NCBI GenBank assembly: GCA_026393865.1
Contig: JAPKZI010000234.1
Location: 288-64,287, forward strand
Origin: Candidatus Aminicenantes bacterium
Lineage (GTDB): Bacteria; Acidobacteriota; Aminicenantia; Aminicenantales; UBA4085
DNA: 64,000 nt
Reading direction: 5' to 3'
Positions 6,885 to 44,379 of this stretch are shown in pieces. Below the pieces are notes generated by a model, which saw nothing but the letters and a program-made list of their open reading frames with translations, did not search any database and was not told the DNA's origin. The number at the start of each line of letters is the position of its first letter. The first letter of the stretch is position 1. Made by a program: the position numbers and the translations under genes.

Positions 6885-6906
6885 GGCCGGATAAAAATGA
6901 TGCATG

Positions 6907-6935: not shown

Positions 6936-6960
6936 TGCTAAGTATTGATGAAACCTTGAG

Positions 6961-8097: not shown

Positions 8098-8123
8098 CGT
8101 GTCGATTATTTGCTTTCATGATC

Positions 8124-8267
8124 CTATTCCACGAGGAACAATCTCAGAAGGAACATGATCAGGACCAGGACGATGCCGGCCTGCTTCCAGAACTTTTTCT
8201 CCCGGGCGAGATACCAGAGGAAATGGACCGTGAGATAAAGGACGATGAGATGATAAACGATGCGCAT
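8124..8267 (-). CDS. 47-aa small membrane protein (not in ORF track)
   Basis: Manual translation gives MRIVYHLIVLYLTVHFLWYLAREKKFWKQAGIVLVLIMFLLRLFLVE*. The ATG lies 5 nt after the stop of the DctM-like gene. It has two hydrophobic segments separated by a basic loop. Confidence 0.4.
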   Translation of the reverse strand: MRIVYHLIVLYLTVHFLWYLAREKKFWKQAGIVLVLIMFLLRLFLVE

Positions 8268-8271
8268 GTCT

Positions 8272-10143: not shown

Positions 10144-10176
10144 GAAAACCTCCGCGATGTGTTTATGAACATTCCC

Positions 10177-16122: not shown

Positions 16123-17700
16123 CTATCCTTTAAGGATCTTGGCGACTTCGTCCTTGTCCACGTCCAGCACGTACGAAATGCCGCTGATCTCGGCCGCGGG
16201 CTTGGTCAGGGCTGCGATGTCGTCCCGGGTGATGTAGCTCAGGGCGAACTTGCGGTTTCCGGCCATGAGCTGGCGAAGACCCTGGCTCAAGCGGGTGAAG
16301 TAGCTGTACACTCCGATCGCGCCCGGAGGGAGCTCGGCGAACTTCTTGCCGTATTTCCTCTTGAGCTCGGGGGCCGTGACGAAGATCTCCTCGACGGAGC
16401 TGCCGAAACGCTCGACGTAGACCGGGATCTGACCTTCGTTGATGCGCTTGCCGATCGTTTTGCCGACCATGGCCGCGGCCAGGGGGCTGCGGGCCATGTC
16501 CACGGCTTTGACGTAGGGAGCGCCGAGGGCCAGGGCCTTGAAGATCTGGTCCTCGAAGGTGATCCCGCCGCCGTAGACGATGTCGGGCAGGTATTCGCCC
16601 TGCTTGGCCAATTGGTGGGCGAATTTATACGTCAGCGACCAGATCTCGACGCCCGGGACTCCCCATTCGTTCATCATCCGCCAGGGGCTCATGCCCGTCC
16701 CGCCGCCGGCTCCGTCTACGGTCAGCATGTCGAGCTTGGCCTTGGAGGAGAACTTGACCGCCCGGGCCAGGTCGGCCGGCCGGTAGGCGCCGGTCTTGAG
16801 GAAGACGTGCTTGGCTCCCGCCTTGCGGAGCTGTTCGACGCGCTTCATGAAGCTCTCTTCCTCGACCATGCCGAGGCGGGAGTGGCGCTCGAATTCCTTG
16901 AAGCTGCCTTTCTCGAAAGCGGCGATGACGTTCGGGTCCTCGGGGTCGGGGAGGACGATGTATCCGCGCTTCCGGAGCTCCTGGGCTTTCTTGAGGCTCT
17001 TGATCTTGACCTCGCCGCCGATGTCCTTGGCCCCTTGGCCCCACTTGAGCTCGACGGTGTCCACACCCAGTTTGCTCAAGGCATATTCCTGAGTGCCCAA
17101 GCGGGCGTCCTCGACGTTGGCCTGGACGACGACCGTACCGTAGCCGTCATACCATTTTTTGAACAGTCCGACCCTCATCTCCATGTCCGGGCTGCGGAGA
17201 ACCCGGCCGTTCTTGATTTCGGATTCGTCGTCCATGCCGCAGACGTTTTCTCCGACCGTCAGGATCGAGCCCGAGATGGCCGCCCCGATGGCCAGCCCTT
17301 CCCAGTTCTGCTTGGCCACGTTGGTCGAACCCATGCCGCCCATGACGAAGGGAACCTTGAGCTTGATCGATTTGTCCCGGCCGATCGTTTGTTCGATCGT
17401 GACTTTTTCGAAGGTCGCCTTGTCGCTGTCCGCCTCGCAGCCGTGGGCGCCGGCGGCGGTGCCCATGATGCTGAAGTGGGACAGGTCGTATGGGTATTCC
17501 TTTTCCGCCCCCGCGGTGATGATGCCGAACGGCTGGGGGTAGAGGACTTCGGCCGCCCGATAAGCGGACTTGCCGATCTCGCACATCCCGATGCAGCCGT
17601 CCACGCAAGTCACGCACATCCCGCTGATTTGACTGATCGATCCTTCGGTCCTGTTTTTGGTTAAAGTCGCCGCGCTCCGGTTCAGTCTCGTATAAGACAT
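16123..17700 (-). CDS. Glutamate synthase GltB FMN/2-oxoglutarate-domain protein (archaeal-type domain 2) with N-terminal Cys cluster
   Basis: 525 aa with an N-terminal CVTCVDGCIGMCEIG cluster. TIM-barrel FMN-domain hallmarks of GltB are present (GGTGMSPW, VYGGGITFEDQIFKALALGA). An AGGAGG RBS lies upstream. Confidence 0.8.
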   Translation of the reverse strand: MSYTRLNRSAATLTKNRTEGSISQISGMCVTCVDGCIGMCEIGKSAYRAAEVLYPQPFGIITAGAEKEYPYDLSHFSIMGTAAGAHGCEADSDKATFEKVTIEQTIGRDKSIKLKVPFVMGGMGSTNVAKQNWEGLAIGAAISGSILTVGENVCGMDDESEIKNGRVLRSPDMEMRVGLFKKWYDGYGTVVVQANVEDARLGTQEYALSKLGVDTVELKWGQGAKDIGGEVKIKSLKKAQELRKRGYIVLPDPEDPNVIAAFEKGSFKEFERHSRLGMVEEESFMKRVEQLRKAGAKHVFLKTGAYRPADLARAVKFSSKAKLDMLTVDGAGGGTGMSPWRMMNEWGVPGVEIWSLTYKFAHQLAKQGEYLPDIVYGGGITFEDQIFKALALGAPYVKAVDMARSPLAAAMVGKTIGKRINEGQIPVYVERFGSSVEEIFVTAPELKRKYGKKFAELPPGAIGVYSYFTRLSQGLRQLMAGNRKFALSYITRDDIAALTKPAAEISGISYVLDVDKDEVAKILKG

Positions 17701-17761: not shown

Positions 17762-18445
17762 CTATTTCCGTTTTTCCTGGACGCAGGTCCCGCACCGGCC
17801 GGCGTCGTACATCCAACACTGCAGCTCGCCGTATTCCTCGAGGCAGGTCGGCTCCATGGTCAGACAGGCGTTGCAGATGTCCGTCTCCGCGGCCGGCCCC
17901 TGGCACCGGAGCTGGCAGGCCGGGCATATGTACATGCACGCGCCGCAGAGCCTGCAGACCTCCGAACGGGCGTCGAACGGCGTCGAGATCTTTCTTTTGT
18001 TGCCGCGATTCTGGAAGCCGATCGCCCGGGCGTCCATCTGCTCCTCGCAGATCCGGACGCACAGACCGCAATAGACGCATTCCTCGTCGCGCGGCTTGAA
18101 CCGCTGATGGGTCAGGCCGTATTTCGAGGCCAGATCCTGCAGCTTCTTGGATCCGGGCGCCGTAGAGAGCATGAGCTCGAGCATCATCCGCCGGGCCCGG
18201 ACGACCCGGGCCGTGTCGGTGTGGACGACGAGGCCCTCTTCGACCGGGTACGTGCAGGAGGAAACCAGCTTGGACCGCGGGCCTTCGCCGATCTCGACCA
18301 GGCATAGCCGGCACCCGCCGAATTCGGTCAGGCCGTCGTTGTGGCAGAGCGTCGGGATCTCGAGCCCATAGAAACGGGCGGCTTCGAGAAGGGTCCAACC
18401 CTCCTCCGCCTGGATCTCCAATCCGTTCATTTTCAGCTGGATCAT
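17762..18445 (-). CDS. NuoG/HydA N-terminal-type Fe-S subunit (2Fe-2S plus multiple 4Fe-4S, no catalytic domain)
   Basis: The start is trimmed to MIQLKMNGLEI (ATGA overlap with the upstream stop at 18442-18445). It has a plant-type 2Fe-2S region (CHNDGLTEFGGCRLCLVEIG) and ferredoxin motifs CVYCGLCVRICE and CRLCGACMYICPAC. It ends about 227 aa in, before any H-cluster or molybdopterin domain. Confidence 0.8.
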   Translation of the reverse strand: MIQLKMNGLEIQAEEGWTLLEAARFYGLEIPTLCHNDGLTEFGGCRLCLVEIGEGPRSKLVSSCTYPVEEGLVVHTDTARVVRARRMMLELMLSTAPGSKKLQDLASKYGLTHQRFKPRDEECVYCGLCVRICEEQMDARAIGFQNRGNKRKISTPFDARSEVCRLCGACMYICPACQLRCQGPAAETDICNACLTMEPTCLEEYGELQCWMYDAGRCGTCVQEKRK

Positions 18446-21400
18446 TTCTTGGCTCCTAGAGAGTTTTTGCCGTCCTCGGTCTCCAGATCGCAGCGGAGGC
18501 ATCGTCTCGCTTCATCGCAGGCCATCCGCTCGGTCAGCCCGAGCTCGACCTCTTTGAAGTTTTTCCGCCGCCTGGCGAGGGACAGATGAGGAGTCTTGGG
18601 ACGCCGGGCTTTGGCCGCTTCCTCAGGAGTCATCTCGGTCGGCCCGGCATAGACCGACGGCCGGGTGAGGCGATAGTCGTGCTCCATAGGCAAACCGCGG
18701 ATGTATTTCTCGATGCTGTCGGCGGCCAGCTTCCCGGCGGCCATGGCCTCGACGACCGTGTTTGGGCCCGTGACGGCGTCGCCTCCGGCGAATATGCCCG
18801 GGCGGGTGGTCGTCGCTAATTCGGGATCGGTGATGATGTTCTCACCGTGGCGCTGGACCTCGTCGCCTTCGCCGATATAGGAGGTGTCGGGCCGTTCGCT
18901 GATGGCCAGGATGAGGATGTCGAGCTTGTAAACGAAGTTCGAGCCCTCGATCGGAATAGGCTTCCTCCGGCCGCTGGCATCCTTATCTCCGAGCCGCATC
19001 CGCACGCACTCGATGGCGACCGCTCTCCCGTTCTTTGTCAGGACTTTGACCGGGGCCACGAGGAACTGGATGTCGATGCCTTCCTCGATGGCGGCGTCCA
19101 CTTCTTCAGCGAGAGCGGGCATCTCAGCCTTGGTCCGGCGGTAGAAGATCGAGACTTTTTCACACTCCTTCTGCCGGAGGGCGGCCCGGGCGGCGTCGAT
19201 GGCCGAGTTCCCCCCGCCCACGATGCATACTTTCTTACCGATCGGGACTTTTTTCCCGAGGTTCACATCGAGCAGATACTCCAGGGAATGGTGGACGCCC
19301 TGGGAGTCTTCACCCGGGATGCCCATGGCCAGCGATTGGCCGGCGCCGGTGGCGCAGAAGACGGCCTTGTAGCCGTCCTTGAACAGCTTGTCGAGGGTAA
19401 AGTCCTTGCCCAGGACCATGTTGGTCCGGATCTCGACGCCCGCGGCCTTGATCTCCTCGATATCCTTAGCCACGACTGACCGGGGAAGACGGTGGTCGGG
19501 GATGCCGACGCTCAGCATGCCTCCGGCCACGGGTAGGGCTTCGTAAATGGTCGGACAGAAACCTTTGCGGGCCAGATAATAAGCGGCCGTCAATCCAGCC
19601 GGGCCTGAGCCGATGACGGCGACCCTCTCCAATCCCTGCTTGACGGGTTCCGGCTCATAGCGCACGTTGTTCTTGGCCGCCCAATCCATGACGAAGCGCT
19701 TGATGGCCCGGATCGAAATGGGCTGGCCCGACTCGCCGGCGCGGCAGGCCTTTTCGCAGGGATGGCTACAGACCCGGGCGCAGACCGACGGCAGGGGATT
19801 GTCCTTCATAATGATGTCGAAGGCCTCTTTGTAATTCCCCTGGGCGACATGGGCGATATAGGTCGAAGCTTCCTGGCCGATGGGGCAGATATAATGGCAC
19901 GGCGAGGAGACGATCTCCTTGCAGACGAGCGCCGGGCATTTCTTGCGCTTGATGTGATATTCGTATTCCTTGCGGAAGTACTTCAGGGTCGATAGAACGG
20001 GATTGGCCGCGGTCTGGCCCAGCCCGCACATCGAGCTGTCCTTGACCGCTTGGGCCAGCTCCTCGAGGAGATCAAGATCGCTCTCTTCGCCCCTGCCGTC
20101 CGAGATCTTCTTGACGATCTCCCACATCCTCTGCGTCCCTTCACGGCAGGAGACGCACTTGCCGCAGGACTCGTCCCGGAGAAAGTTCAGAAAATACTTG
20201 GCGATGTCGACCATGCAGGTCTTGTCGTCCATGACGATCATCCCGCCCGAGCCCATGATTGCCCCGGCCGCCGTCAGGCTTTCGTAATCGATGGTGAGGT
20301 CAAGCTTGGAGCTGGGGAGACAGCCTCCGGACGGGCCTCCGATCTGAACCGCTTTGAACTCCCTCCCCTCGGGGATACCCCCCCCGATGCCGTAGACGAT
20401 GTCCCGGAGGGTGATGCCCATCGGGACCTCGACCAATCCCGTGTTGTTGATTTTTCCGACGAGGGAAAAGATCTTTGTTCCCTTGCTCGTTTCCGTTCCG
20501 AGGCCCGCGAACCAGGCCGCCCCACGCCGGATGATATTGGGCACGGTCGCCCAAGTCTCGACGTTGTTGATCACGGTCGGCATCCCCGCGTAGCCTTTTT
20601 GGGCCGGATAGGGTGGCCGTTGCCGGGGCATGGCGATCCTTCCCTCCACGGACGCGATCAGAGCGGTCTCTTCTCCGGAGACGAATGCTCCCGCTCCCTG
20701 CACGACCTCGACGTCGAAATGGAATCCAGTGTCGAGAATGTTCTTCCCGAGCAGCCCGTACTCTTTGGCTTGGGAGATGGCAATGTCCATTCTGTGCACG
20801 GCCAGCGGGTATTCATGCCGGATATAGATGAATCCTTTTTCAGCCCCGATCGCTTTCGCCCCGATCACCATCCCTTCGAGAACGGTATGAGGGTCGGCTT
20901 CAAGGACCGACCGGTCCATAAAGGCCCCCGGGTCCCCTTCGTCGCCGTTGCAAATGAGGTATTTAGGAGTCTTCTTTGCTTGGCGTCCGATGTCCCACTT
21001 CTTACCGGTCGGGAAGCCGGCGCCTCCCCGGCCCCGGAGGCCGGAGGCGCTGATCTCGGAGACGATCTCTTCGGGCGTCATCTTCGTCAACGCCTTGGCC
21101 AACGCTTCGTAACCGTCGAAAGCAATGTATTCCTCGACCTTTTCCGGGTCGATCCGGCCGCGGTTGCGAAGCACGATCAGGCGCTGGTGTTTGAAGAACT
21201 CGATGTCCTTCATTTTTGGGACCGGCTCTTTCTCGGCGGGCGGGACGTACATCAATTTTTTGACCGGCCGGCCCTTCAGCAGGTGTTCTTCGACGAGGTG
21301 CGGGACGTCTTCGACTGTGAGCCGCTGGTAGAAAATGCCGTCCGGCTGGACGAGGAGGATCGGCCCTCGCTCGCAGAATCCATTGCATCCTGTGGCGATC

Positions 21401-21528
21401 ACGAGGACCTCGTTCTGGAGTTTCCTCTTCTGAATCTCCTGTTCGAGGGCCTCTTTGATCTTAAAGGAGTTGCAGGAGACGCATCCCGTCCCGGCGCAAA
21501 CCAATAAATGAGCGCGATATTTTTTCAA
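18442..21528 (-). CDS. Fusion protein: Trx-like [2Fe-2S] + NuoF (NADH/FMN) core + GltD/NfnB-like NAD(P)H-FAD oxidoreductase
   Basis: 1028 aa. The N-terminus has CAGTGC..CNGFCERGP. The NuoF region has GLRGRGGAGFPTGKKW, CNGDEGDPGAF and ESCGKCVSCREG. The GltD-type helical Fe-S domain (CARVCSHPCEKAC) follows, with two dinucleotide folds VAVIGSGPAGLTAA and VCIVGGGNSAIDAA. Confidence 0.85.
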   Translation of the reverse strand: MKKYRAHLLVCAGTGCVSCNSFKIKEALEQEIQKRKLQNEVLVIATGCNGFCERGPILLVQPDGIFYQRLTVEDVPHLVEEHLLKGRPVKKLMYVPPAEKEPVPKMKDIEFFKHQRLIVLRNRGRIDPEKVEEYIAFDGYEALAKALTKMTPEEIVSEISASGLRGRGGAGFPTGKKWDIGRQAKKTPKYLICNGDEGDPGAFMDRSVLEADPHTVLEGMVIGAKAIGAEKGFIYIRHEYPLAVHRMDIAISQAKEYGLLGKNILDTGFHFDVEVVQGAGAFVSGEETALIASVEGRIAMPRQRPPYPAQKGYAGMPTVINNVETWATVPNIIRRGAAWFAGLGTETSKGTKIFSLVGKINNTGLVEVPMGITLRDIVYGIGGGIPEGREFKAVQIGGPSGGCLPSSKLDLTIDYESLTAAGAIMGSGGMIVMDDKTCMVDIAKYFLNFLRDESCGKCVSCREGTQRMWEIVKKISDGRGEESDLDLLEELAQAVKDSSMCGLGQTAANPVLSTLKYFRKEYEYHIKRKKCPALVCKEIVSSPCHYICPIGQEASTYIAHVAQGNYKEAFDIIMKDNPLPSVCARVCSHPCEKACRAGESGQPISIRAIKRFVMDWAAKNNVRYEPEPVKQGLERVAVIGSGPAGLTAAYYLARKGFCPTIYEALPVAGGMLSVGIPDHRLPRSVVAKDIEEIKAAGVEIRTNMVLGKDFTLDKLFKDGYKAVFCATGAGQSLAMGIPGEDSQGVHHSLEYLLDVNLGKKVPIGKKVCIVGGGNSAIDAARAALRQKECEKVSIFYRRTKAEMPALAEEVDAAIEEGIDIQFLVAPVKVLTKNGRAVAIECVRMRLGDKDASGRRKPIPIEGSNFVYKLDILILAISERPDTSYIGEGDEVQRHGENIITDPELATTTRPGIFAGGDAVTGPNTVVEAMAAGKLAADSIEKYIRGLPMEHDYRLTRPSVYAGPTEMTPEEAAKARRPKTPHLSLARRRKNFKEVELGLTERMACDEARRCLRCDLETEDGKNSLGAKK

Positions 21529-21537
21529 GGAATCCTC

Positions 21538-21954
21538 TCAGTAAGTGGTTTCACTTCCGATCGCTAAAGCATATTCGACGACGAGGTGGCCGCCCAGGAC
21601 ATGTTTCTTGACGATCTGACGGATTTTGGCCGGTGTCAGGTCGACGTATTTGACCGGCGGGTGGCCTTTGATCTCGACCGTCGCCATCGGCTCCCGTCTG
21701 CAGAATCCGGCGCAGCCCGAGGTCGTCACGATCACGTCCTTGACCTTGCTTTTACTCAGCTGGTCAAGAAGGGCGTTCATGATCTCGCGGGCGCCGGCCG
21801 CGATCCCGCACGTGCCCATATGGACCGTGACCCGGCCCCGGCCTTCACCATCCCGGATGGTCATAGTCGCCTTGGCTTTATCCCGGATTTTGGCTAAATC
21901 CTGGATCGTGAGTTTTTTCTGTTTCACTTCGGGCGTTCGCTTTTTTACCGTCAT
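21538..21954 (-). CDS. Thioredoxin-like [2Fe-2S] ferredoxin (HydD-like)
   Basis: 138 aa with Cys contexts HMGTCGIAAG and TSGCAGFCRREP, as in Trx-like 2Fe-2S ferredoxins of HydABC-type operons. Confidence 0.75.
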   Translation of the reverse strand: MTVKKRTPEVKQKKLTIQDLAKIRDKAKATMTIRDGEGRGRVTVHMGTCGIAAGAREIMNALLDQLSKSKVKDVIVTTSGCAGFCRREPMATVEIKGHPPVKYVDLTPAKIRQIVKKHVLGGHLVVEYALAIGSETTY

Positions 21955-22021: not shown

Positions 22022-22525
22022 CTAGGCGTGTTTCGCAACCCGCTTCGTAGCCTTCGGTTTATTTCCGCGTTGATACTTTTTCAGGATCGTGTTGACTCTC
22101 TGGATCGTCGTGTGTCCGTAGTAGTCCCGGTCCACGACGACGACGGGCCCGATGGCGCAGCAGCCCAAACAGGCCACGGTTTCCAGGGTGAACTGTTTGT
22201 CGGGTGTGGTTTCGCCGGGTTCGACGGCCAGCCTCTTCTCGAATTCCGAGAGTATCTTGGGTCCTCCGCGGACATGACAGGCGGTTCCCAGGCAGACCGT
22301 CACCAGATGCCGCCCCCGCGGCTTGAGGCTGAAGGCCCGGTAGAACGTGGCCAAGCCGACGATATCGATCAGCGGCACGGCCAGCTCGGACGCCACAGTA
22401 CGAAGAGCCTCCGGAGGAAGATACGCGTTCTCGGACTGGATATCCAAAAGGATGGCGATCAGATTTTTCTTCAAGCCTTCGTGCTTATGGATGATCGAAC
22501 GGATTTGTTCTTGCATGGCATTCAA
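22022..22525 (-). CDS. NuoE/HydC-like [2Fe-2S] subunit
   Basis: 167 aa with the NuoE pattern (VTVCLGTACHVRG...ACLGCCAIGP). The track start is TTG at 22525 with AGGAGG 7 nt upstream. The alternative is ATG at 22516. Confidence 0.85.
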   Translation of the reverse strand: MNAMQEQIRSIIHKHEGLKKNLIAILLDIQSENAYLPPEALRTVASELAVPLIDIVGLATFYRAFSLKPRGRHLVTVCLGTACHVRGGPKILSEFEKRLAVEPGETTPDKQFTLETVACLGCCAIGPVVVVDRDYYGHTTIQRVNTILKKYQRGNKPKATKRVAKHA

Positions 22526-22722: not shown

Positions 22723-22752
22723 TTTATAGCAGATAAAATTTGCCTTTGTCAA
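22723..22752 (-). promoter_or_regulatory. Putative sigma70 promoter (TTGACA-18-TATAAA) for the nuoE-like operon
   Basis: The plus strand reads tttata (22723-22728) and tgtcaa (22747-22752) with an 18-nt spacer. This implies a leader of about 190 nt before the start at 22525. Confidence 0.4.
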
Positions 22753-22811: not shown

Positions 22812-23357
22812 TTAGGTCCGACCTATTTTTTTGAGGCCGGTTTGAAGATTTTTTTTAGCCGCGCGGAAGATCGACGGGCACAGACAGGGCGTGCTTCGGG
22901 GGTCGCCGAGAAACTCGCGGCTGGCGAACCGGAAGACGAGGCCGTTTACTCGGTGGCCGTAGCGAAAATCGATCTCGGGATGGCCGAAAACAAGCGCCGT
23001 GATCGTTGCAACCATCGCCGTCAGGGGGGGGCGATCGATATGACGGTAGCGGAAGCGGGCGGCGACCTTGGTCCCTTGGTTGGGGACCGTCGTCAGGACC
23101 GCGCCGCCGCCACAGTGTTCCGCCGCTTGGGCGAGAAGCGGGAGGCCGAGGCCGGTCCGTTTTCCTTTGGTCGTGAAGAACGGGTCGAGGGCCCGCCGCG
23201 CGTCTTTTTTCGACATGCCCCGCCCGTTGTCCGAAATGCGGACCGTCAGGAGGTTCCGCCGCTCATTCTCATTGATCGTCACGGTGATCCGCGTCGCGTC
23301 CGCCGCGACCGCGTTTTCGACGATGTCGAGGATGTGGAGCGACAAATCCTCCATCAT
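22812..23357 (-). CDS. Stand-alone HATPase_c (GHKL ATPase) domain protein
   Basis: The start is trimmed to MMEDLSLHILDIVENA (ATGA overlap with the PHP gene stop). It has an N-box HILDIVENA, G1 DNGRGM and G2 GLGLPL, with no His-phosphotransfer or sensor domain. Confidence 0.75.
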   Translation of the reverse strand: MMEDLSLHILDIVENAVAADATRITVTINENERRNLLTVRISDNGRGMSKKDARRALDPFFTTKGKRTGLGLPLLAQAAEHCGGGAVLTTVPNQGTKVAARFRYRHIDRPPLTAMVATITALVFGHPEIDFRYGHRVNGLVFRFASREFLGDPRSTPCLCPSIFRAAKKNLQTGLKKIGRT

Positions 23358-24100
23358 GAGCTGCAGACCTTTCTTCCATTTTTGGACCGGAGCGCCATCC
23401 GAATCTCTTCGAACGAGGGGGCCGCAAGGAGGAAGTCCGTGGACGTCCGGCCGATGTCCTCGGGCCGATGGGCGTCGGAGAAACGGACGAGAGGGATCGA
23501 GGCGTTCATCGGGATGGCCGTCCGGGCTTCGGCGATGGTCATGAGAGGAGAGACCTCGAGGGCGTCGAGTTCGATGTCGGAGGGGATGAAGCCCAGTTGA
23601 GAGATGATGCTGAACGCGCCTTTGTCGATATGCGACGCGATCGCCAGGCCGCCGAAGCGGTGGATCAGGGCGACGATCTCGTGGACGTCCAGCCGCGTCG
23701 CGGCCAGGAGACACCGCGGGCTGAAGCCCATCACCTCGTCGTCCTTGTTGACGACCACCTGGTCTTGGACGAAGGCTTTTTTCGTGGGGACCTCGGGAAG
23801 GTTCCGAAAAACCTCGTCCTGGACGGGTCGAATGTCGTCCATGCTTTTGAAGACGCCGAGAATATGGACCTCCTCCTCGGAGGTCAGTTCCATGCCCGGA
23901 AGGACCGTCATTCCCGTCCCTTCCGCGGCCTGGAGCGCGGCCGCGGCGTTTTCCGCGGTGTTGTGGTCGCTGATGGCGATGATATCCAGCCCCGCTTCGA
24001 GCGCCCGGCGGACGATTCGGCGAGGATAATTCGTCAATTCACCGCAGGGGGAGAGGCAGGAGTGGATGTGGAGGTCGGCTCGAAAGCGCCTGAGCCCCAT
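23354..24100 (-). CDS. PHP-domain phosphoesterase
   Basis: 248 aa with N-terminal ADLHIHSCLSPCG and ISDHN metal-binding motifs typical of PHP domains. Confidence 0.8.
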   Translation of the reverse strand: MGLRRFRADLHIHSCLSPCGELTNYPRRIVRRALEAGLDIIAISDHNTAENAAAALQAAEGTGMTVLPGMELTSEEEVHILGVFKSMDDIRPVQDEVFRNLPEVPTKKAFVQDQVVVNKDDEVMGFSPRCLLAATRLDVHEIVALIHRFGGLAIASHIDKGAFSIISQLGFIPSDIELDALEVSPLMTIAEARTAIPMNASIPLVRFSDAHRPEDIGRTSTDFLLAAPSFEEIRMALRSKNGRKVCSS

Positions 24101-24441
24101 CAGGTTCCTTGAATCCCTAATCCATAGACCCTGCCGACGAATTCAAAGGCGGTCAAAGGCGTTCCGATAATGGACACCCGTTCTTTACGGGCCAGCTCGA
24201 CGGTTTCCGCGGCGGGTTCGCGGCCGTTGACAAGGACGATCGCCGCCAGTTCCTTGAAGGCGGCGACGGCGATGATGTTCGGATGGATCTGGAGGGTGAC
24301 CCAGAGTTGGTCTTTTTGGCCGTGGGCGAGGACATCGCTCAAAAGATCGCTGGCGTAGCCGCCGCTGATAGGGCGGGTCAGCTCATTCCGACCTGTATAG
24401 ACCTTGAGGTCCAGCTGTTCGATGAGTTTGGCCAGGGTCAT
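24100..24441 (-). CDS. DRTGG-domain protein
   Basis: The start is trimmed to MTLAKLIEQLDL (ATGA overlap with the upstream stop). It is 113 aa and paralogous in pattern to the 26149-26496 product (ASDLLSDVLA.. / IVLVNGREP.. / IIGT). Confidence 0.65.
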   Translation of the reverse strand: MTLAKLIEQLDLKVYTGRNELTRPISGGYASDLLSDVLAHGQKDQLWVTLQIHPNIIAVAAFKELAAIVLVNGREPAAETVELARKERVSIIGTPLTAFEFVGRVYGLGIQGT

Positions 24442-25712
24442 GTCTCCTCCTTTTTCGCAAACGGGCAGTCGTCGAGGGCCGCTAGGCCGCGAACGATGTC
24501 GTCGGCCAAGGTCCGGCAATCCGGAGCGCCGCAGGCTCCGCAATCCTTGCGCGGCAGCCGTTGGAAGATCTCGTTCCGGCGATTGGCTTTGGAGATCGCC
24601 TGGGCGGGGTCGGCGTCTAAAGGAGGCGACTCCAGGGGTGCGATGGGATGATGGAAGGACAGAAAATCCTTGTGATAGAGCAGGTTCATGTCGGAGCTGT
24701 CGACCACGGTCCGTTCTCCCATTATACTGACGAGACGCAGGATCCGGCTTTTCGCCAGGTAGCGGTTTTCGACCGTCAGGGGGCCCCCGATGCAGCCGTC
24801 CGGACAGACCGTGCATTCCAAGAGGTCCACGTCCTTGAGGAGGCCGAGTTCCACCTGGTTCAAAACGCGGATGGTGTCCCGAACTCCCGAGACGGCCACC
24901 GTTCGATGGTTTTTGAGCCCGCGCGTTTCGCCTCCCGAAAGGGCTGTGCCGACGCCGGTGCCGCTGAAGATAGTCTCCGGGAAGAGATGGGCCATGATCG
25001 TGTCTTCCTTGCTCTGCCGGAGGGTTTGGTAGATCGTTTTAAAAATATCCCTGATCGAAATCGCGCCGTCCAGATAGGATTTTTCCATCGAAGCGGGGTG
25101 GTTGATCGAGACCATTTTCGCCGGACAGGGGGTGATGTGGAAAATCCCGATGTTCGACGCGGGAACCTTGGTCATCCGGGGGAGGTTGGCCCGCAGGATC
25201 TTGGCCGCGTTCTCGCGCGGCGGTTCGATGGGGACGATATGTTCGCACAGCGAGGGAAAACGGCGTTGGATAAGACGGATCACCACGGGGCAAGTCGAGG
25301 AGATGAACGGCCGGGGCTTGGGGTGAGTGGCGAGATACATCTCGAGGGCGGTGTTGTTGAGCTCGCAGATCGTGCTGAGCTCATAGACGTAGTCAAACCC
25401 GACGCGGCGCAGGGCGAAGAGGATCTCGTTCGGCAGGGTTGTGTTGTCGAACTGGCCGTAGAGCACCGTTGCCGGAATAACGACCTTGTACGGGAACGCT
25501 TTGAGGTCCGAGAACGACGTCGTCATCGACTCGACGGCGTCCTGGGGACAAAACCGGAGACATTCCCCGCAGTCGATGCAGAGCTCGTCGATGATTAGCG
25601 CTTTCCCGTTTTTAATCCGGATCGCTTTGGTCGGACAGGCGATCATGCAATGGACACAACCGATGCATTTTTCGGGGTTGATCTGCACAGAATGACGGGT
25701 GTTGTCGGTCAT
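24438..25712 (-). CDS. [FeFe]-hydrogenase-like (putative sensory) Fe-S protein
   Basis: 424 aa with two N-terminal CxxCxxCxxxCP ferredoxin motifs. H-cluster motif equivalents are SSTCPVV (cf. TSCCP), TPCPAKMVS (cf. MPCxxKxxE) and ECTVCPDGCIGGP (cf. ExMxCxxGCxxG). There is a C-terminal CGACGAPDC..C cluster. Confidence 0.8.
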   Translation of the reverse strand: MTDNTRHSVQINPEKCIGCVHCMIACPTKAIRIKNGKALIIDELCIDCGECLRFCPQDAVESMTTSFSDLKAFPYKVVIPATVLYGQFDNTTLPNEILFALRRVGFDYVYELSTICELNNTALEMYLATHPKPRPFISSTCPVVIRLIQRRFPSLCEHIVPIEPPRENAAKILRANLPRMTKVPASNIGIFHITPCPAKMVSINHPASMEKSYLDGAISIRDIFKTIYQTLRQSKEDTIMAHLFPETIFSGTGVGTALSGGETRGLKNHRTVAVSGVRDTIRVLNQVELGLLKDVDLLECTVCPDGCIGGPLTVENRYLAKSRILRLVSIMGERTVVDSSDMNLLYHKDFLSFHHPIAPLESPPLDADPAQAISKANRRNEIFQRLPRKDCGACGAPDCRTLADDIVRGLAALDDCPFAKKEET

Positions 25713-26152
25713 GGCCGTTGTCCGTTGGTCAGGAACGTGAGCTCAAGCCGCGTTCCTCGGCCGACCTCCGAGGTGATCAGGAACGCGTCCGTGTTTTTTT
25801 TGATATTGGCGAGTCCCATGCCGGCGCCGAACCCGAGCTCGCGCATTTCGAGAGTGGCCGTGGAATAGCCTTCCGTCATGGCCAACTCGATGTCTTCGAT
25901 TCCGGGACCGGAGTCTTCGACGACGACGTGGACCCGGCCCGGCGTGACCGACAGAACCAGCCGGCCCTCCCAGGCGTACATGATGATGTTCAGCTCGGCC
26001 TCGTAGCTCGCGATCGCGGCGCGGAGCACGACCGGAGTGCTCAAGCCGAGCTCTTTCAGGAGGTTTTTGATCTCCCAGGAGACTTCGCCCGCCCGGGAAA
26101 AATCGCCGCCTTTGACCGGGAACTCTTGCCGAAAAACGGTGTCCTTCGTCAT
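25709..26152 (-). CDS. RsbW/SpoIIAB-like anti-sigma-type serine kinase (HATPase_c)
   Basis: 147 aa with EAELNIIMYA, DSGPGIEDIE and GFGAGMGLANI motifs of small GHKL Ser kinases. There is an ATGA overlap on both sides. Confidence 0.75.
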   Translation of the reverse strand: MTKDTVFRQEFPVKGGDFSRAGEVSWEIKNLLKELGLSTPVVLRAAIASYEAELNIIMYAWEGRLVLSVTPGRVHVVVEDSGPGIEDIELAMTEGYSTATLEMRELGFGAGMGLANIKKNTDAFLITSEVGRGTRLELTFLTNGQRP

Positions 26153-26496
26153 CGTCTTCCTTTAAGAAAGGACCCGGAGACCCTGGAGCACGCTTCAAAC
26201 ATGGAACATCCCGTGGCGATGATCGGGACGTTGTGTTCCCGGGCCTCGTCGATGACCTTCCGCTCCGGCCTCTTTCCTTGGACGATGACGATGGCCGCGA
26301 CTTCGACCAGGCGCGCGGTGCGGACGACATGCGTGTTCACCAACCCCGTCATGAGGATGGAGCCCGGTTGTATGAACGCCAGCACGTCGCTCATCAAATC
26401 CGAGGCGAAAAATTTCGCACATTCGGTCTCGAGATTCATCTCGGGCGTCAGGAGCTCTCCGTCCAATGCCGTCATCATCCCTTTCAAGGTCAACAT
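26149..26496 (-). CDS. DRTGG-domain protein
   Basis: 115 aa (ASDLMSDVLAF...IVIVQGKRP...IIATG). It is the first gene of the overlapped six-gene set. Confidence 0.65.
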   Translation of the reverse strand: MLTLKGMMTALDGELLTPEMNLETECAKFFASDLMSDVLAFIQPGSILMTGLVNTHVVRTARLVEVAAIVIVQGKRPERKVIDEAREHNVPIIATGCSMFEACSRVSGSFLKGRR

Positions 26497-26537: not shown

Positions 26538-26566
26538 ATTTTATAGGGGAAGAGCGTATTCGTCAA
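26538..26566 (-). promoter_or_regulatory. Putative sigma70 promoter (TTGACG-17-TAAAAT) for the signalling cassette
   Basis: The plus strand reads atttta (26538-26543) and cgtcaa (26561-26566) with a 17-nt spacer. A GAGGA RBS lies 5 nt before the ATG at 26496. Confidence 0.35.
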
Positions 26567-26638: not shown

Positions 26639-28045
26639 TCAGAGGAACGGCAGGTAGCGCCCGATCTCATAATCGCTGACCTGCTTGTCGAACTCCGAGC
26701 CGACGGTCTTCATGTAATCCGCGATCTCTTCCCGCTTGTTGGCGATGAACTTGGCGAAGATGTGTTCGCCGAGCGTCTCGCGGACGAGGACGCTTTTTTC
26801 GGCGAGCTTGACCGCCTCGTCCAGGTTCCGGGGGAGGGTCTGGATGCTGAACTTCTTCTGCCGGGCGTTGCTCATGTGATAGATGTTCTCTTCGACGGCG
26901 GGCGGCAGAGGGAATTTCTCCCGGATGCCCTCGAGACCGGCGGCGAGCATGACGGCGAAGGCGAGATAGATGTTGCAGCCGGGATCGGGCGAGCGCAGTT
27001 CGATGCGGGTCGCGTTTTCCTTGCCGGGTTGATAGCGGGGGACCCGGATGTAGGCCGACCGGTTCCTCTGCCCCCAGGCGATATAGACCGGGGCTTCGTA
27101 TCCTTCGATGAGCCGTTTGTAGGAGTTCACCCACTGGCTGAAGACCGCGGACGCTTCGCGGGCGTGTTTGATCAATCCCGAGATATAGGCCCGGGCCGTG
27201 TCGGACAGATGATGGGCCCCGGCGGGATCGAAGAAGGTGTTTTTGTCGTCCTTCCAAAGCGATTGATGGACGTGCATCCCGCTCCCGTTCTGGCCGTTGA
27301 TGGGCTTGGGCATGAACGTCGCGTACAGGCCGTGCATCCGGGCCACGCGCTTGACCATGTAGCGGAAGAGCATGCCGATATCGGCCATATCGAGAGCGCC
27401 GGTAAAACGGAGGTCGATCTCGTGCTGGCCGTGGGCGGCCTCGTGGTGATCGTATTCCGAAGGGATGCCCATCTTCTTCAGGAGAATCTGGATCTCCTTG
27501 CGAACCTCGCCGTGCCGGCCGGAGAAGAAATAGCCGCCCGAATCGAGCGGGACGGGCTCGTGGTCGTTGGCGAAAAGGAAAAACTCGAGTTCGGGCCCGA
27601 CCTTGAGATCGTCGAATCCGAAATCCTTGTTGGCTCGGAGGAGGACCTGTTTGAGACGGTAGCGCGAATCGCCTTCGTAATGCGTCCCGTCCGGCATCAG
27701 GATATCCCCGAACATCACCGCCTCGCGCCAGGATGTCTCCTCGGCGAACCCTCGGTATTCCCAGGGCAGGACCCGGAAGGTCTTGGCGTCGGGCTTGATG
27801 TTGAGATCGCTTTCTTCGATCCGGACGAATCCCTCGACCGAGGACCCGTCGAATCCCTTGCCGTCGCGGAAAGCCTTTTCGAGCTCCGCGCTGGGGAACG
27901 AGAAATCCATCGGCCGCCCCAGGATGTCGGGGAAAATGACCCGGACGAACTCGATCTTGCGGGCCGGGTCGAGGACTGCTTTCAGGACTTCTTCTTCGCT
28001 CGTAAATCCGAAATTCTTATGCGAAGGATCGCTCGGGTAATACAT
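26639..28045 (-). CDS. glnA: Glutamine synthetase, type I
   Basis: 468 aa with a beta-grasp N-domain (FVRVIFPDILGRPMDFSF) and catalytic-domain motifs (KPINGQNGSGMHVHQSLW, NRSAYIRVP, RIELRSPDPGCNIYL). Confidence 0.9.
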   Translation of the reverse strand: MYYPSDPSHKNFGFTSEEEVLKAVLDPARKIEFVRVIFPDILGRPMDFSFPSAELEKAFRDGKGFDGSSVEGFVRIEESDLNIKPDAKTFRVLPWEYRGFAEETSWREAVMFGDILMPDGTHYEGDSRYRLKQVLLRANKDFGFDDLKVGPELEFFLFANDHEPVPLDSGGYFFSGRHGEVRKEIQILLKKMGIPSEYDHHEAAHGQHEIDLRFTGALDMADIGMLFRYMVKRVARMHGLYATFMPKPINGQNGSGMHVHQSLWKDDKNTFFDPAGAHHLSDTARAYISGLIKHAREASAVFSQWVNSYKRLIEGYEAPVYIAWGQRNRSAYIRVPRYQPGKENATRIELRSPDPGCNIYLAFAVMLAAGLEGIREKFPLPPAVEENIYHMSNARQKKFSIQTLPRNLDEAVKLAEKSVLVRETLGEHIFAKFIANKREEIADYMKTVGSEFDKQVSDYEIGRYLPFL

Positions 28046-28175: not shown

Positions 28176-28619
28176 ATGATTGACGAACTCGACAAAAAGA
28201 TCATCCGGGTCATGAACCAAAACGCGCGAAAAAGCTTTCGCGAAATCGCCAAGGAGGTGGGGACGTCCGTGACCGCGGTCATTCAGACCGTGAAAAAACT
28301 GGAGGATCTGGGAGCCATCAAGGGCTATGTTCCGATCATCGATCCGCGGCATTTCGGACTGGACATGACCGTCGCGATCGCCCTCCGCATCTCTCAAGGC
28401 AAGCTCATCGAGACCCAGAAAAAGATCGCCGAGGACCCCCACGTGGCCGCGGTATACGACATCACCGGCGAATGGGACTCGCTCGTCATCGCCCATTTCC
28501 GGGGCCGGGACGACCTGAACACGTTCCTCAAAAAGCTGAACACCCTGCCTTGCGTCGACCGGACCGTAACCCATCTCGTGCTCAACACGGTCAAGGACGA
28601 GCGGCGCCTGTTCGTCTAA
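28176..28619 (+). CDS. Lrp/AsnC-family transcriptional regulator
   Basis: 147 aa with an N-terminal HTH (LDKKIIRVMNQNARKSFREIAKEVGTSVTAVIQTVKKLEDLGAIKGY) and a C-terminal RAM/ACT-like domain. Confidence 0.85.
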   Translation: MIDELDKKIIRVMNQNARKSFREIAKEVGTSVTAVIQTVKKLEDLGAIKGYVPIIDPRHFGLDMTVAIALRISQGKLIETQKKIAEDPHVAAVYDITGEWDSLVIAHFRGRDDLNTFLKKLNTLPCVDRTVTHLVLNTVKDERRLFV

Positions 28620-32181: not shown

Positions 32182-33573
32182 ATGCCGGCAGCGACAATAA
32201 AAGAAGATCGGGCGGATGGCCATGAGATCGTTTCGCCGGCCTCTCTGCGCGTTCTCGTGGTCGATGATGAGCTCAACATCCGCAGGACCCTCACGATCTG
32301 CCTCGAATCGGACGGCCATCGGGTCACGTCCGTCGCCAACGTCCAAGACGCCCTGGCGGAGGCCTCGCGACGGAGCTTCGATTTGGCCTTCGTGGATATC
32401 CGGCTGGGGACGGAGGACGGCCTCGATCTGATCCCGGCCCTGCGGGCGACGGCGCCCTGGCTGAAGATCATCATCATCACCGCGTACGCCTCCATCGATT
32501 CGGCCATCGAAGCCATGCGGCGCGGCGCGACCGATTACATCCCGAAGCCGTTCACACCCGCTCAGATCCAACTGGCCGTCCGAAAGGCCTTCGAGATGCG
32601 GACGCTCGAACAGCGGGTGGCCAGCCTTCAGGAGGATCTCGGCCGGGCCCATCCCGAGATCGATTTTTCGAGCGCTTGTCCGGCCATGCAGCGGGCGGTG
32701 AATCTCGCCCGCCAGGCGGCCGCGTCCGACGCGACGATCCTTCTGCGCGGGGAGAGCGGGACCGGAAAAACCTTCCTGGCCAGGGCGATCCATGCATGGA
32801 GCCGCCGGGCGGAGAAGACCCTTGGGGTCGTTTCCTGTCCCTCCTTTTCCCGGGAGCTCTTGGAAAGCGAGCTTTTCGGGCATGTGAAAGGGGCCTTTAC
32901 CGGCGCCGTCCGCGACAATCCCGGCCGCCTCGCCGCCTGCGAGGGCGGGACGCTGTTCCTGGACGAGATCAGCGACCTTCCTCTAGCCTTGCAACCGAAA
33001 CTGCTTCGCTTCGTCCAGGACAAGGAATACGAGCGCGTCGGCGAGGCCGTGCCGCGCAAGGCCGAGGTGAGACTGATCGCCGCCACGAATATCGTCCTGG
33101 AGAAAGCGGTCAAGGAAGGCCGGTTCCGGGAGGACTTGTATTATCGGATCAACGTGATCCAGATCGAGATCCCGCCCCTGCGCGAGCGTCCAGAGGATGT
33201 GGTCACCCTGGCCGGGCGTTTGCTGGCCTTTCACGGCCGGAACAATCACCGGCTGGACCTGGCCTTCACGAACGAGGCGCTCGAAGCGCTCCGCCGGCAT
33301 GCTTGGCCGGGAAACGTGCGCGAACTGAGCAACGTAGTGGAACGGGCGGCCATCCTGTGCCGGACAAACCGGATCGGAATCGAAAGCCTCCCCGCCGTTC
33401 TTGTGCCCGGCGACGCCGCGCCGAAGATCGGCGATCCGGTGACGCTCGAGCGGATCGAGGAAGAGCACGTCCGTCGCGTCCTGGCCGGCGCGAGATCGCT
33501 TCAAGAAGCGGCGGACATCCTCGGCATCGACCAAGCCACCCTCTGGCGGCGCCGAAAAAAATACGGCCTCTGA
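32182..33573 (+). CDS. Sigma54-dependent response regulator (REC + AAA+ EBP + Fis-type HTH)
   Basis: 463 aa with a REC domain (VLVVDDE...DLAFVDIRL), Walker A GESGTGKT, the GAFTGA sigma54-contact motif, and a C-terminal HTH (AADILGIDQATLWRRRKKYG). Confidence 0.9.
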   Translation: MPAATIKEDRADGHEIVSPASLRVLVVDDELNIRRTLTICLESDGHRVTSVANVQDALAEASRRSFDLAFVDIRLGTEDGLDLIPALRATAPWLKIIIITAYASIDSAIEAMRRGATDYIPKPFTPAQIQLAVRKAFEMRTLEQRVASLQEDLGRAHPEIDFSSACPAMQRAVNLARQAAASDATILLRGESGTGKTFLARAIHAWSRRAEKTLGVVSCPSFSRELLESELFGHVKGAFTGAVRDNPGRLAACEGGTLFLDEISDLPLALQPKLLRFVQDKEYERVGEAVPRKAEVRLIAATNIVLEKAVKEGRFREDLYYRINVIQIEIPPLRERPEDVVTLAGRLLAFHGRNNHRLDLAFTNEALEALRRHAWPGNVRELSNVVERAAILCRTNRIGIESLPAVLVPGDAAPKIGDPVTLERIEEEHVRRVLAGARSLQEAADILGIDQATLWRRRKKYGL

Positions 33574-33701
33574 GCGTTTCTCTACCTCCTATCTTGCAAG
33601 ATGAAAGGGTCTTTTTTCCAGTTCTTGCGATTTTCAAGGCGCGGATTTTGAATATAAACTGTAATCTATTTATTATCAATAGGATAAGATGAATTTCTAA
33701 T

Positions 33702-33717
33702 TGGCATAATTCGTGCA
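33702..33717 (+). promoter_or_regulatory. Putative sigma54 (-24/-12) promoter TGGCAT-AATTC-GTGCA upstream of the kinase-kdp operon
   Basis: tggcataattcgtgca has GG (33703-33704) and GC (33715-33716) separated by 10 nt, 25 nt upstream of the ATG at 33742. A perfect 12-bp palindrome ATCTTGCAAGAT (33591-33602) and a related TTCTTGCGATTTTCAAG lie about 80-110 bp upstream, where EBP sites are expected. Confidence 0.55.
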
Positions 33718-33741
33718 AAGAATCCGGCCAGGGAGAAAAAA

Positions 33742-44366: not shown

Positions 44367-44379
44367 GGGTCCCGCTTTC

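Follow-up and report, generated by a model that had tools for sequence, protein, structure and literature searches.

How a hydrogenase-like sensor comes to stand beside an enzyme that is not a hydrogenase is the question raised by a locus in a 64,000-nucleotide stretch of the Candidatus Aminicenantes bacterium assembly GCA_026393865.1 (contig JAPKZI010000234.1, positions 288 to 64,287 of the forward strand), hereafter called the window. On its minus strand, between 22812 and 26496, six genes form a tightly packed cassette around HydS, a 424-amino-acid (aa) homologue of the [FeFe] hydrogenases, and the operon that follows encodes an enzyme of the NuoE/NuoF (Bfu/HydABC) type. We consider it somewhat better than an even bet (a rough probability of 0.55) that the cassette is an H2/redox-responsive phospho-switch centred on HydS, the most likely target of which would be the adjoining Bfu-type enzyme. 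What appears to be new, judging from the predicted domains, is that the enzyme associated with the cassette is here not a hydrogenase but a complex of the Bfu type, absent from the published catalogue, that includes a subunit of the glutamate synthase family. The Aminicenantes version may be regarded as a natural experiment, in which the sensor cassette has been kept and the hydrogenase subunit swapped for a protein of the glutamate synthase family. If the cassette is still H2-responsive, H2 sensing would regulate redox enzymes beyond the hydrogenases, and the Bfu family would gain a new functional class in a widespread uncultured phylum.

HydS and the genes coupled to it

HydS is encoded by the third gene of the cassette (24438-25712, minus strand) and gives two Fer4 matches, an Fe_hyd_lg_C match of 85.8 bits and a C-terminal PF04060 match. 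Group D (M2e) proteins are defined by two N-terminal clusters, an H-domain, a C-terminal cluster and the absence of a PAS domain, together with the loss of Cys299 and a hydroxyl residue at position 353 (PMC8163306, PMC13104023). Each of these features can be recognized in the window protein. The two N-terminal [4Fe-4S] motifs are C16/C19/C22/C26 and C45/C48/C51/C55, both covered by Fer4. In HMMER alignments to 7qv7_D and 7q4v_A, the HydS segment SSTCP falls on TSCCP, TPCPAKMVS on MPCxxKxxE and ECTVCPDGC on ExMxCxxGC, and C141, C196, C303 and C307 occupy the four H-cluster ligand positions. The proton-relay Cys299 is replaced by Thr140, Met353 by Thr194, Glu361 by Ser and Met497 by Thr, and the family consensus at the relay and Met353 sites reads ISSxCP and ITPC, respectively. 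The C-terminal cluster, C391-x2-C394-x4-C399-x16-C416 (PF04060 'FeS', 44.4 bits), has its last Cys only 8 residues from the C-terminus and follows the Cx2Cx4Cx16C pattern, which Land et al. describe as the C-terminal motif of the M2e and M2f subclasses (PMC8163306); no PAS domain is matched in Pfam or NCBIfam. By its motifs, the protein is therefore a clear member of group D (M2e, HydS), that is, a putative sensory [FeFe] hydrogenase. A first-pass annotation of this DNA, made from the letters alone, had claimed that all four H-cluster Cys are retained, that Thr stands for the relay Cys and Ser for the Glu, that a PAS domain is missing and that the protein ends in a four-Cys cluster, and had read this as the pattern of a sensor. 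The alignments and domain searches agree with it on every point, the register of the Cys residues with the H-cluster ligands included, and narrow the sensor assignment to group D/M2e, the family of TamHydS.

The family is large, with more than 5000 matches at E<=1e-10 among the 8000 candidates scored in a 90%-clustered database and 343 clusters (50% identity) at E<=1e-30, nearly all of them full-length; the closest matches are metagenome-assembled genomes of Aminicenantes and Acidobacteriota. The H-cluster Cys are invariant in 38 diverse family members, and of the 16 cluster Cys in this alignment 15 are invariant, while C19 is at least 90% conserved in a closer set of 10 sequences. The clade to which the window belongs keeps the L1, L2, L3 and C-terminal motifs, and its H-cluster pocket is undecayed.

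TamHydS from Thermoanaerobacter mathranii is the only group D member that has been characterised (PMC8163306, PMC13104023). It interconverts H+ and H2 reversibly with low turnover (PMC8163306), takes up [2Fe]adt and responds to H2 (PMC8163306, PMC13104023), while its signalling and its partners are stated as unknown and a redox change of the C-terminal cluster has been ruled out as the signal (PMC13104023). In a tblastn comparison, the window HydS is 37% identical over 312 aa (E 1e-59) to the TamHydS coding sequence, which was taken from the PMC13104023 supplement by optical character recognition and contains frameshifts, and the L1, L2, L3 and C-terminal blocks are all in register. Both proteins have two N-terminal [4Fe-4S] clusters, an H-domain and the C-terminal Cx2Cx4Cx16C motif without a PAS domain; however, TamHydS has Ala for the relay Cys and Ser for Met353, whereas the window protein has Thr at both sites. 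The hosts differ as well, that of TamHydS being a Firmicute and that of the window protein a member of the Aminicenantes. The TamHydS gene lies upstream of a bifurcating hydrogenase and beside a histidine-kinase-like ATPase (PMC8163306); that hydrogenase is a trimeric group A enzyme, whereas the window HydS adjoins a NuoEF operon that has no H-domain and encodes a Glu_synthase-family protein instead. For group D, a group A neighbour is stated to be common but not compulsory.

Group C (M2f) proteins, such as TmHydS and the Ruminococcus albus HydS, resemble the window protein in their sensor-type H-domain without a proton relay, in their C-terminal four-Cys cluster and in their genomic tie to bifurcating hydrogenases and to kinases and phosphatases, but they have a PAS domain (or HisKA/HATPase or PP2C) attached behind that cluster, whereas HydS has none and its putative transducers are separate proteins (DRTGG, PHP). 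A similar concept is known from the regulatory [NiFe] hydrogenase H2 sensor HoxBC-HoxJ-HoxA, in which a slow, inhibitor-tolerant hydrogenase serves as a kinase-coupled H2 sensor. This is, however, an unrelated metallo-enzyme that works with a PAS-histidine kinase and a response regulator, neither of which occurs in the window cassette.

The genes and junctions of the cassette were established from the listing of open reading frames (ORFs) and by reading the minus strand directly, and the domains by Pfam and NCBIfam searches. In the direction of transcription, the cassette begins with DRTGG1, a stand-alone DRTGG-domain protein of 115 aa (26149-26496; PF07085, 36.9 bits), which is followed by a SpoIIAB/RsbW-like GHKL serine-kinase-type protein of 147 aa (25709-26152; HATPase_c 34.1 bits, HATPase_c_2 26.6 bits) and by HydS. 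Downstream of HydS are DRTGG2, a 113-aa paralogue of DRTGG1 (24100-24441; PF07085 20.7 bits and Hpr_kinase_N 22.2 bits, both below cut-off), a PHP-family metal-dependent phosphoesterase of 248 aa (23354-24100; PF02811 and PF13263, i.e. PHP and PHP_C), and a 181-aa GHKL ATPase with a small C-terminal alpha/beta domain (22812-23357; HATPase_c 61.6 bits, HATPase_c_3 40.7 bits). All six are on the minus strand, and successive genes overlap in ATGA at 26149-26152, 25709-25712, 24438-24441 and 23354-23357, and in TGATG with base 24100 common to both genes at the remaining junction. The six-gene order and the five overlaps are exactly as first annotated, and the same series of 4/4/4/1/4-nucleotide overlaps recurs in the relative L001, the HydS of which is 79% identical to that of the window (the loci of relatives are given by L numbers throughout). 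The overlaps are genuine, yet usual for operons, and thus unremarkable by themselves. PAS, receiver and helix-turn-helix domains were found in none of the six proteins with Pfam and NCBIfam, and the earlier remark that the cassette has neither a DNA-binding nor a receiver domain is accordingly correct.

Enzymes that accompany the cassette

To place the locus among its relatives, one genome per species was scanned with a 10-sequence HydS alignment, and the best 80 of 476 confirmed relatives were annotated. The order DRTGG-kinase-HydS-DRTGG-PHP is kept in 68 of the 80 loci, and the GHKL ATPase directly follows the PHP gene in 50, while 11 loci have a Firmicute-type order with the ATPase between nuoE and a small ferredoxin gene (hydD). 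The cassette occurs in Acidobacteriota, Aminicenantes, Chlorobiaceae, Sumerlaeota, Thermodesulfobacteriota, KSB1, WOR-3, Fermentibacteria and Firmicutes. Its usual companion is a NuoE/NuoF operon of the Bfu/HydABC type, with NuoF encoded within the stored flank of 51 loci and a complete HydA (Fer2_4 plus H-domain) in that of 24. The first-pass annotation had mentioned comparable cassettes beside HydABC operons, which holds for these 24 flanks and for Halsa_1862-1871 of Halanaerobium hydrogeniformans, where the same gene list has been printed without interpretation (PMC4237134). The Halsa_1862-1871 genes and the Firmicute-type loci L043, L049, L062, L065, L070 and L076 share with the window an ORF/DRTGG gene, an anti-sigma-type Ser kinase, an Fe-S hydrogenase-like protein, PHP, NuoE, a 'histidine kinase' ATPase, a ferredoxin-like protein and NuoF. 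Their operons, however, end in a catalytic HydA and have the ATPase gene between nuoE and hydD, whereas in the window the ATPase gene is the last of the cassette and precedes a promoter-like element, and HydA has given way to other subunits. The cassette is hence a known and widespread module, of which the literature searched gives a descriptive gene list, and it is not peculiar to the window locus.

Several variants were seen among these loci. Two of them, L019 (about 6100-9300) and L020 (about 2000-5500), have two tandem HydS cassettes, in the first of which DRTGG and kinase are fused (DRTGG~kinase) and the genes for PHP and the ATPase are missing; after the tandem come genes for NuoF, for a Fer2_4 protein and for a GltD-type protein. 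A stand-alone GltD-like gene is found directly upstream of the cassette in 24 loci, mostly of the HydABC type where the stored flank suffices (examples at about 8200-9100 are L030-L032, L037-L039, L051, L053, L056-L058, L080 and L081), in contrast to the window, where a GltD-like module is fused to NuoF. In the metagenome-assembled genomes L015 and L025 (about 9800-11400), HydS is split into two ORFs, which may reflect a frameshift, a pseudogene or a mistake in long-read assembly.

In the window, the operon next to the cassette opens with a NuoE/HydC/BfuC-like [2Fe-2S] subunit of 167 aa (22022-22525, minus strand, as is the whole operon; PF01257 165.8 bits and NuoE/HoxE NCBIfam models). A small thioredoxin-like [2Fe-2S] protein of 138 aa that resembles HydD/BfuD comes next (21538-21954; PF01257 24.6 bits and 2Fe-2S ferredoxin NCBIfam models), and its gene has an equivalent position in most loci. 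The third protein, of 1028 aa (18442-21528), is a NuoF/HydB/BfuB-like subunit fused to a GltD-like FAD/NAD(P)H module: Pfam detects Complex1_51K (165.4 bits), SLBB, NADH_4Fe-4S (117.1 bits), Fer4_20 and Pyr_redox_2, and NCBIfam nuoF_fam (490.8 bits) and gltD-type models. It is followed by an Fe-S subunit of at most 246 aa (17762-18502; Fer2_4 62.7 bits and Fer4_7), which looks like HoxU or the N-terminus of HydA and so like a minimal BfuA; it matches HoxU with 125.2 bits and the N-terminal 206 positions of FeFe_hydrog_A6 with 125.6 bits, and has no H-domain. The longest ORF of this subunit shares 61 nucleotides with the end of the NuoF-GltD gene, and its true start is probably further downstream, since the Pfam match begins at residue 19 and the L001 orthologue has 230 aa. 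No H-domain subunit was detected in this operon or elsewhere in the window.

The last protein of the operon has 525 aa (16123-17700) and is assigned to the Glu_synthase family of flavin mononucleotide (FMN) proteins by a partial PF01645 match of 67.5 bits, with an N-terminal CxxCxxxCxxxC motif; searches of NCBIfam families and of PDB sequences gave no match. Over the 120 matches listed it is 82-94% identical, which is much tighter than HydS, C29/C32/C36/C40 are invariant, and the source names, where present, are Aminicenantes. Its AlphaFold2 (AF2) model has a mean confidence (pLDDT) of 47 and comes from a shallow alignment in which all homologues are at least 82% identical. An amidotransferase or GXGXG domain was found by Pfam neither in the operon nor in any window ORF scanned, so the term 'GOGAT-like' (for glutamate synthase) is true of two modules only. 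The earlier description of the neighbours as glutamine synthetase and a GOGAT-like complex can therefore be kept in part: glnA and the GltD-like and Glu_synthase parts do adjoin the cassette, but the complex is rather a Bfu-type one with a divergent PF01645 protein than a GOGAT.

Like the BfuABC family, the operon encodes a NuoE-like BfuC, a NuoF-like BfuB with an N-terminal 2Fe-2S domain, a minimal BfuA (2Fe-2S plus 4Fe-4S) and a BfuD-like ferredoxin. Glutamate synthases are not among the modules of the published BfuABC catalogue (Hyd, NiFe, Fdh, Nfn, Por, Codh, F420, Wor, Bam, Rub, Mbh and Nuo), nor is glutamate synthase mentioned anywhere in the paper (PMC9304861). The third-substrate module of the window, the Glu_synthase-family FMN protein, is thus unlisted. 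On these grounds, the operon looks like a Bfu/HydABC-type complex from which the hydrogenase domain has been removed and to which an uncatalogued glutamate-synthase-family module has been added. The tail of NuoF also differs. Fer4_20 and Pyr_redox_2 follow directly after the NuoF part in the window, with a strong gltD-type NCBIfam match, and this GltD-like module replaces the BfuB ferredoxin tail, unlike in close relatives; the NuoF of L001 (14121-15890), for instance, ends in a 2x[4Fe-4S] Fer4 ferredoxin tail instead. The fusion to GltD was observed in the window, L006, L012, L014 and L036, and the canonical 2x[4Fe-4S] tail without GltD in L001/L004, L007, L009, L015, L017 and L027. Since the tails differ among such close relatives, members of the clade may differ in the cofactor or nucleotide that the complex uses.

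The clade of the window comprises 17 genomes, the window and 16 others, as delimited by the HydS tree with the addition of L015 and L025 from the locus annotation. All are Aminicenantes by protein similarity, some of the records being labelled otherwise or without a taxon. The operon with the glutamate-synthase-like (GltS-type) protein is directly adjacent to the cassette in 13 of the 17, in eight loci upstream of it instead of downstream, and HydA is present within 10 kb of the cassette in none, one contig being too short for an operon call. Sister lineages combine the cassette with GltD/Nfn-type BfuA subunits (L019, L020, L024 and L026) or with a molybdopterin enzyme (L002/L003), and more distant lineages with HydA. 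A tree of the NuoF domain has the same clade structure as the HydS tree, and the two proteins have thus diversified together; because of this agreement, the cassette and the NuoE/NuoF core appear to be co-inherited while the third module is exchanged. The pattern is suggestive of a cassette whose inheritance follows the Bfu core and not HydA.

The loss of HydA also invites a different explanation, namely that HydS is itself a catalytic hydrogenase, which docks in trans on the HoxU-like subunit of the NuoEF/GltS-like complex and feeds it H2-derived electrons or vents them; the result would be an H2-linked glutamate-synthase-like enzyme. In its favour, the BfuA-like subunit is truncated to a HoxU-like HydA N-terminus, the cassette remains adjacent in both gene orders in a clade none of whose 17 loci has HydA within 10 kb, the two N-terminal [4Fe-4S] clusters of HydS suit electron transfer, and TamHydS does interconvert H+ and H2 (PMC8163306). 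Against these points, the proton-relay Cys and the Glu are missing, the turnover of TamHydS is low (PMC8163306), five signalling-type partners are translationally coupled to HydS and the cassette has a promoter-like site of its own. Moreover, in 24 loci the same cassette occurs together with a complete HydA, so that HydS is not in general the catalytic subunit, and we consider the in-trans explanation unlikely.

It may also be asked whether HydS senses H2 at all. As a redox or Fe-S sensor, it could lack the [2Fe] subcluster, in the manner of Nar1, or its N-terminal clusters could report the state of ferredoxin or NAD(P)H, and the DRTGG proteins might bind nucleotides or dinucleotides. Such a function would agree with a cassette that tracks the NAD(H)- and ferredoxin-handling Bfu core whatever the third substrate, and that stands beside non-hydrogenase Bfu complexes of the molybdopterin and GltD types; DRTGG domains occur in the regulatory parts of CBS-pyrophosphatases, and the missing maturase genes of the window (see below) point the same way. 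On the other hand, both the family and the clade show little or no variation in the four H-cluster Cys, the PCxxK Lys and the GCxGGP loop, and TamHydS binds [2Fe]adt and responds to H2 (PMC8163306, PMC13104023). In addition, the clade member L013 encodes a second H-domain sensor. Its 720-aa protein (2282-4444, minus strand), located 6 kb from the cassette, has 2xFer4, an H-domain, an FeS domain, HisKA and HATPase_c, and is by its domain order a group C-like hydrogenase fused to a histidine kinase. From the undecayed H-cluster pocket and this second H-domain sensor, it can be argued that organisms of the clade make H-clusters. A sensor of redox state alone seems to us rather improbable as an account of HydS.

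Partner proteins and the proposed switch

The protein encoded upstream of HydS resembles kinases of the SpoIIAB/RsbW type, although the resemblance falls short of equivalence. Its best NCBIfam match is SpoIIAB (TIGR01925, E 3.7e-11), but with 43 bits against a cut-off of 135, and HATPase_c_2, at 26.6 bits, is just under its cut-off of 27.4; the only PDB matches are to the anti-sigma F factor SpoIIAB, and the N-box YEAELN as well as the G1 (DSGPGI) and G2 (GFGAGMGL) boxes are conserved. DRTGG2 is a clear paralogue of DRTGG1 despite its Pfam score, with 34% identity and an E value of 3e-20. The SDLxSDV and Thr motifs of DRTGG1 are conserved over about 150 homologues, and DRTGG2 has the same SDLxSDV and likewise a conserved Thr. 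The PDB matches of DRTGG1 are weak, namely AF_1212 (2ioj) and the DRTGG insert of a CBS-pyrophosphatase; DRTGG domains are also known from the regulatory regions of phosphotransacetylases.

In the PHP protein, the metal-ligand motifs HxH, DHN, GME, EEVH, H and SDAH are conserved in 76 homologues, and so is a CLSPC pair. Its PDB matches are PHP phosphoesterases, a 5'-3' exoribonuclease and EndoQ. A role in a defence system was rejected, as the NCBIfam matches to TrlF and Ppl span the PHP domain only and are far below cut-off. For the last protein, the 181-aa ATPase, an AF2 model with a pLDDT of 87.9 was compared by Foldseek. Histidine-kinase CA domains cover only ~100 columns, whereas N-terminal fragments of MutL, PMS2, MLH1 and TopoVI-B span 170-208 columns at TM scores of 0.51-0.59. 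Because these matches outspan those to the CA domains, the protein is, as far as the model can tell, a GHKL ATPase that carries a small transducer-like domain and no DNA-binding fold, and nothing marks it clearly as a kinase. The first-pass annotation had described it as a HATPase_c-only protein; the HATPase_c domain is there, within what resembles a GHKL ATPase of the MutL/TopoVI-B type rather than a kinase domain. That the last gene is the kinase half of a split two-component system was likewise rejected, since it has no DHp/HisKA and its MutL/TopoVI-B likeness extends over a greater length.

Gene fusions tie these partners into what appear to be two sub-modules flanking HydS. DRTGG and the kinase are fused in L019 and L020, and PHP and the ATPase form a single ORF (about 11600) in L061, L073 and L080, three Acidobacteriota genomes, the latter fusion being a Rosetta-stone hint of joint action. 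The literature searched contains no analysis of the accessory genes of the cassette and no relevant joint treatment of DRTGG and hydrogenase. The comparative data supply candidate signalling partners for group D: the kinase of the SpoIIAB type and the pair of DRTGG proteins, together with the PHP phosphoesterase and the MutL-like GHKL ATPase.

These observations can be combined into the following mechanism. HydS would carry an H-cluster and three accessory [4Fe-4S] clusters without a fast proton relay and, because this relay is absent, it is proposed to react with H2 slowly and reversibly, as TamHydS does, and to change its conformation in doing so. The state of HydS would be read by its translationally coupled partners, with DRTGG1 and the SpoIIAB/RsbW-like serine kinase on one side and DRTGG2, the PHP phosphoesterase and the GHKL ATPase on the other, and the two arms together, if they have the predicted kinase and phosphatase activities, would constitute an opposing switch. 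The most likely target of the switch would be the co-inherited NAD(P)H/ferredoxin oxidoreductase of the NuoE/NuoF type next door, which in the Aminicenantes clade would have lost its hydrogenase subunit and have a HoxU-like Fe-S subunit and a glutamate-synthase-family FMN protein instead. In this way, the cassette may match the electron flow through the adjoining enzyme to H2/redox status. Poudel et al. (2016) reportedly found regulatory genes in HydABC neighbourhoods and phosphorylation of the purified enzymes; a post-translational target would fit, given such phosphorylation of HydABC-type enzymes.

A partial precedent is provided by the partner-switching modules SpoIIAB-SpoIIAA-SpoIIE and RsbW-RsbV-RsbU, which like the cassette combine a small SpoIIAB-type GHKL Ser-kinase, small alpha/beta proteins and a phosphoesterase in tight operon coupling. 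The analogy is only partial because these modules include a STAS antagonist, a PP2C phosphatase and a sigma factor, all of which the cassette lacks; DRTGG and PHP would take the places of the first two.

A quite different function for the accessory proteins would be the assembly or maintenance of Bfu-type Fe-S flavoenzymes, for instance as an ATP-dependent clamp and a phosphoesterase that acts on a cofactor. The MutL/TopoVI-B likeness of the ATPase, the position of its gene among the structural genes nuoE and hydD in Firmicutes and the action of PHP relatives on nucleotides are all compatible with such a function. However, HydABC enzymes have reportedly been purified and solved without cassette proteins, as in 7q4v, 8a6t and 7p5h, which are among the PDB matches of HydS. 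A sensor-type hydrogenase and a SpoIIAB-like kinase also speak for signalling, and an assembly role is in our view highly improbable.

Several points weigh against the phospho-switch. On the side of HydS, neither HydE, HydF and HydG nor a catalytic hydrogenase was found in the 64-kb window, and the C-terminal cluster of TamHydS did not respond to H2 (PMC13104023, 2026). As for maturases, a search for radical-SAM/HydF signatures by regular expression over the window and 83 loci returned a single unrelated radical-SAM ORF, and Pfam scans of the remaining large window ORFs detected neither maturases nor HydA. On the side of the partners, PHP relatives are often nucleotide or nucleic-acid phosphoesterases, the ATPase is as similar to MutL/TopoVI-B as to kinases, Pfam and NCBIfam find no STAS or PP2C domain in the six proteins, and neither the cassette nor any other window ORF scanned encodes a cognate sigma factor. 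With regard to the genomic pattern, three of the 17 clade genomes (L010, L013 and L016) have the cassette without an adjacent Bfu operon, the HydS and NuoF trees are quick neighbour-joining distance trees without support values, and the locus labels were assigned with hidden Markov models built from window proteins; for L001, L002 and L003, these labels agree with an independent precomputed Pfam annotation.

The glnA neighbourhood and other genes of the window

Upstream of the cassette lies glnA for a type I glutamine synthetase (26639-28045, minus strand; Gln-synt_C 375.8 bits, TIGR00653 451 bits), and divergent from it a regulator of the Lrp/AsnC family (28176-28619, plus strand; HTH_AsnC-type and AsnC_trans_reg). 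The same glnA/Lrp-AsnC arrangement is found in L001, and glnA adjoins the cassette in 6 of the 17 clade genomes, the window and five relatives. Between glnA and DRTGG1, there is a sigma-70-like promoter candidate, TTGACG-17-TAAAAT (26538-26566, minus strand), called from its 10/12 match to the consensus; in the glnA-cassette gap of the relatives, TTGACG and a -10-like element are kept and the remaining sequence is unconserved. A second promoter-like element, the near-consensus TTGACA-18-TATAAA with TGn (22723-22752, minus strand), is located in the 286-nucleotide gap about 200 nucleotides upstream of nuoE, where the window, L004, L006 and L036 have the block cTTGACAaa...ttcTGcTATAAAt in common but not the rest of the spacer and leader. 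A terminator scan of the minus strand gave nothing convincing in either intergenic gap, and no RNA family was detected by Rfam anywhere in the window. The arrangement suggests three separate promoters rather than a single transcript, and since one promoter-like site precedes the cassette and another the nuoE operon, co-transcription with glnA is not implied.

The gene order has prompted the proposal that the cassette couples H2/redox sensing to nitrogen assimilation by co-regulating glnA and a GOGAT-type enzyme. Besides glnA and its divergent Lrp/AsnC regulator directly upstream in six genomes, this proposal can draw on the GltD-like and Glu_synthase-family modules of the neighbouring operon and on the GltS-like protein, the 82-94% identity of which among the matches listed is as expected of a core enzyme. 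However, glnA adjoins the cassette in no more than 6 of the 17 clade genomes, the cassette and nuoE are preceded by promoter-like sites of their own, and over the whole family the cassette is without a nitrogen context. The PF01645 match of the 525-aa protein is partial, none of the GOGAT models of NCBIfam fits it, and an amidotransferase or GXGXG domain was found in none of the ORFs scanned. The first-pass annotation had seen the cassette as wedged between glnA and the operon, and while this geometry is correct for the window, a general link to glnA does not hold, given the 6 of 17 genomes and the eight loci with the operon upstream. A nitrogen link is thus plausible but weakly supported, and co-regulation of glnA and the neighbouring enzyme as the function of the cassette is decidedly unlikely. 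The predictions that the redox-sensor and nitrogen proposals make for the target overlap with those of the phospho-switch.

A broader synthesis is also conceivable, in which the HydS cassette is a general H2/redox controller of Bfu-type enzymes that is wired here to an uncatalogued glutamate-synthase-type Bfu class and gates nitrogen assimilation in the glnA-adjacent subclade. The cassette may then either control the adjoining Bfu enzyme or supply it with H2-derived electrons, and we regard this synthesis as doubtful.

Elsewhere in the window, two sigma-54-dependent response regulators are encoded, each beside a PAS/HAMP histidine kinase (32182-35583, plus strand, and 42990-47229, minus strand), and one such pair occurs at the matching place in L001. 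Beside kdpA/kdpB, a plus-strand gene (40140-41843) encodes a 567-aa protein composed of a KdpD N-terminal sensor domain and a PtsN-like PTS EIIA-2 domain, with no histidine-kinase part. In E. coli, PtsN binds KdpD, and the 567-aa protein therefore looks like a fusion of two partners. Finally, at 55350-58278 (plus strand), a fusion of NTPase_1 with a ThiS/MoaD-like domain (261 aa) is encoded directly upstream of an aldehyde:ferredoxin oxidoreductase (AFOR_N/AFOR_C).

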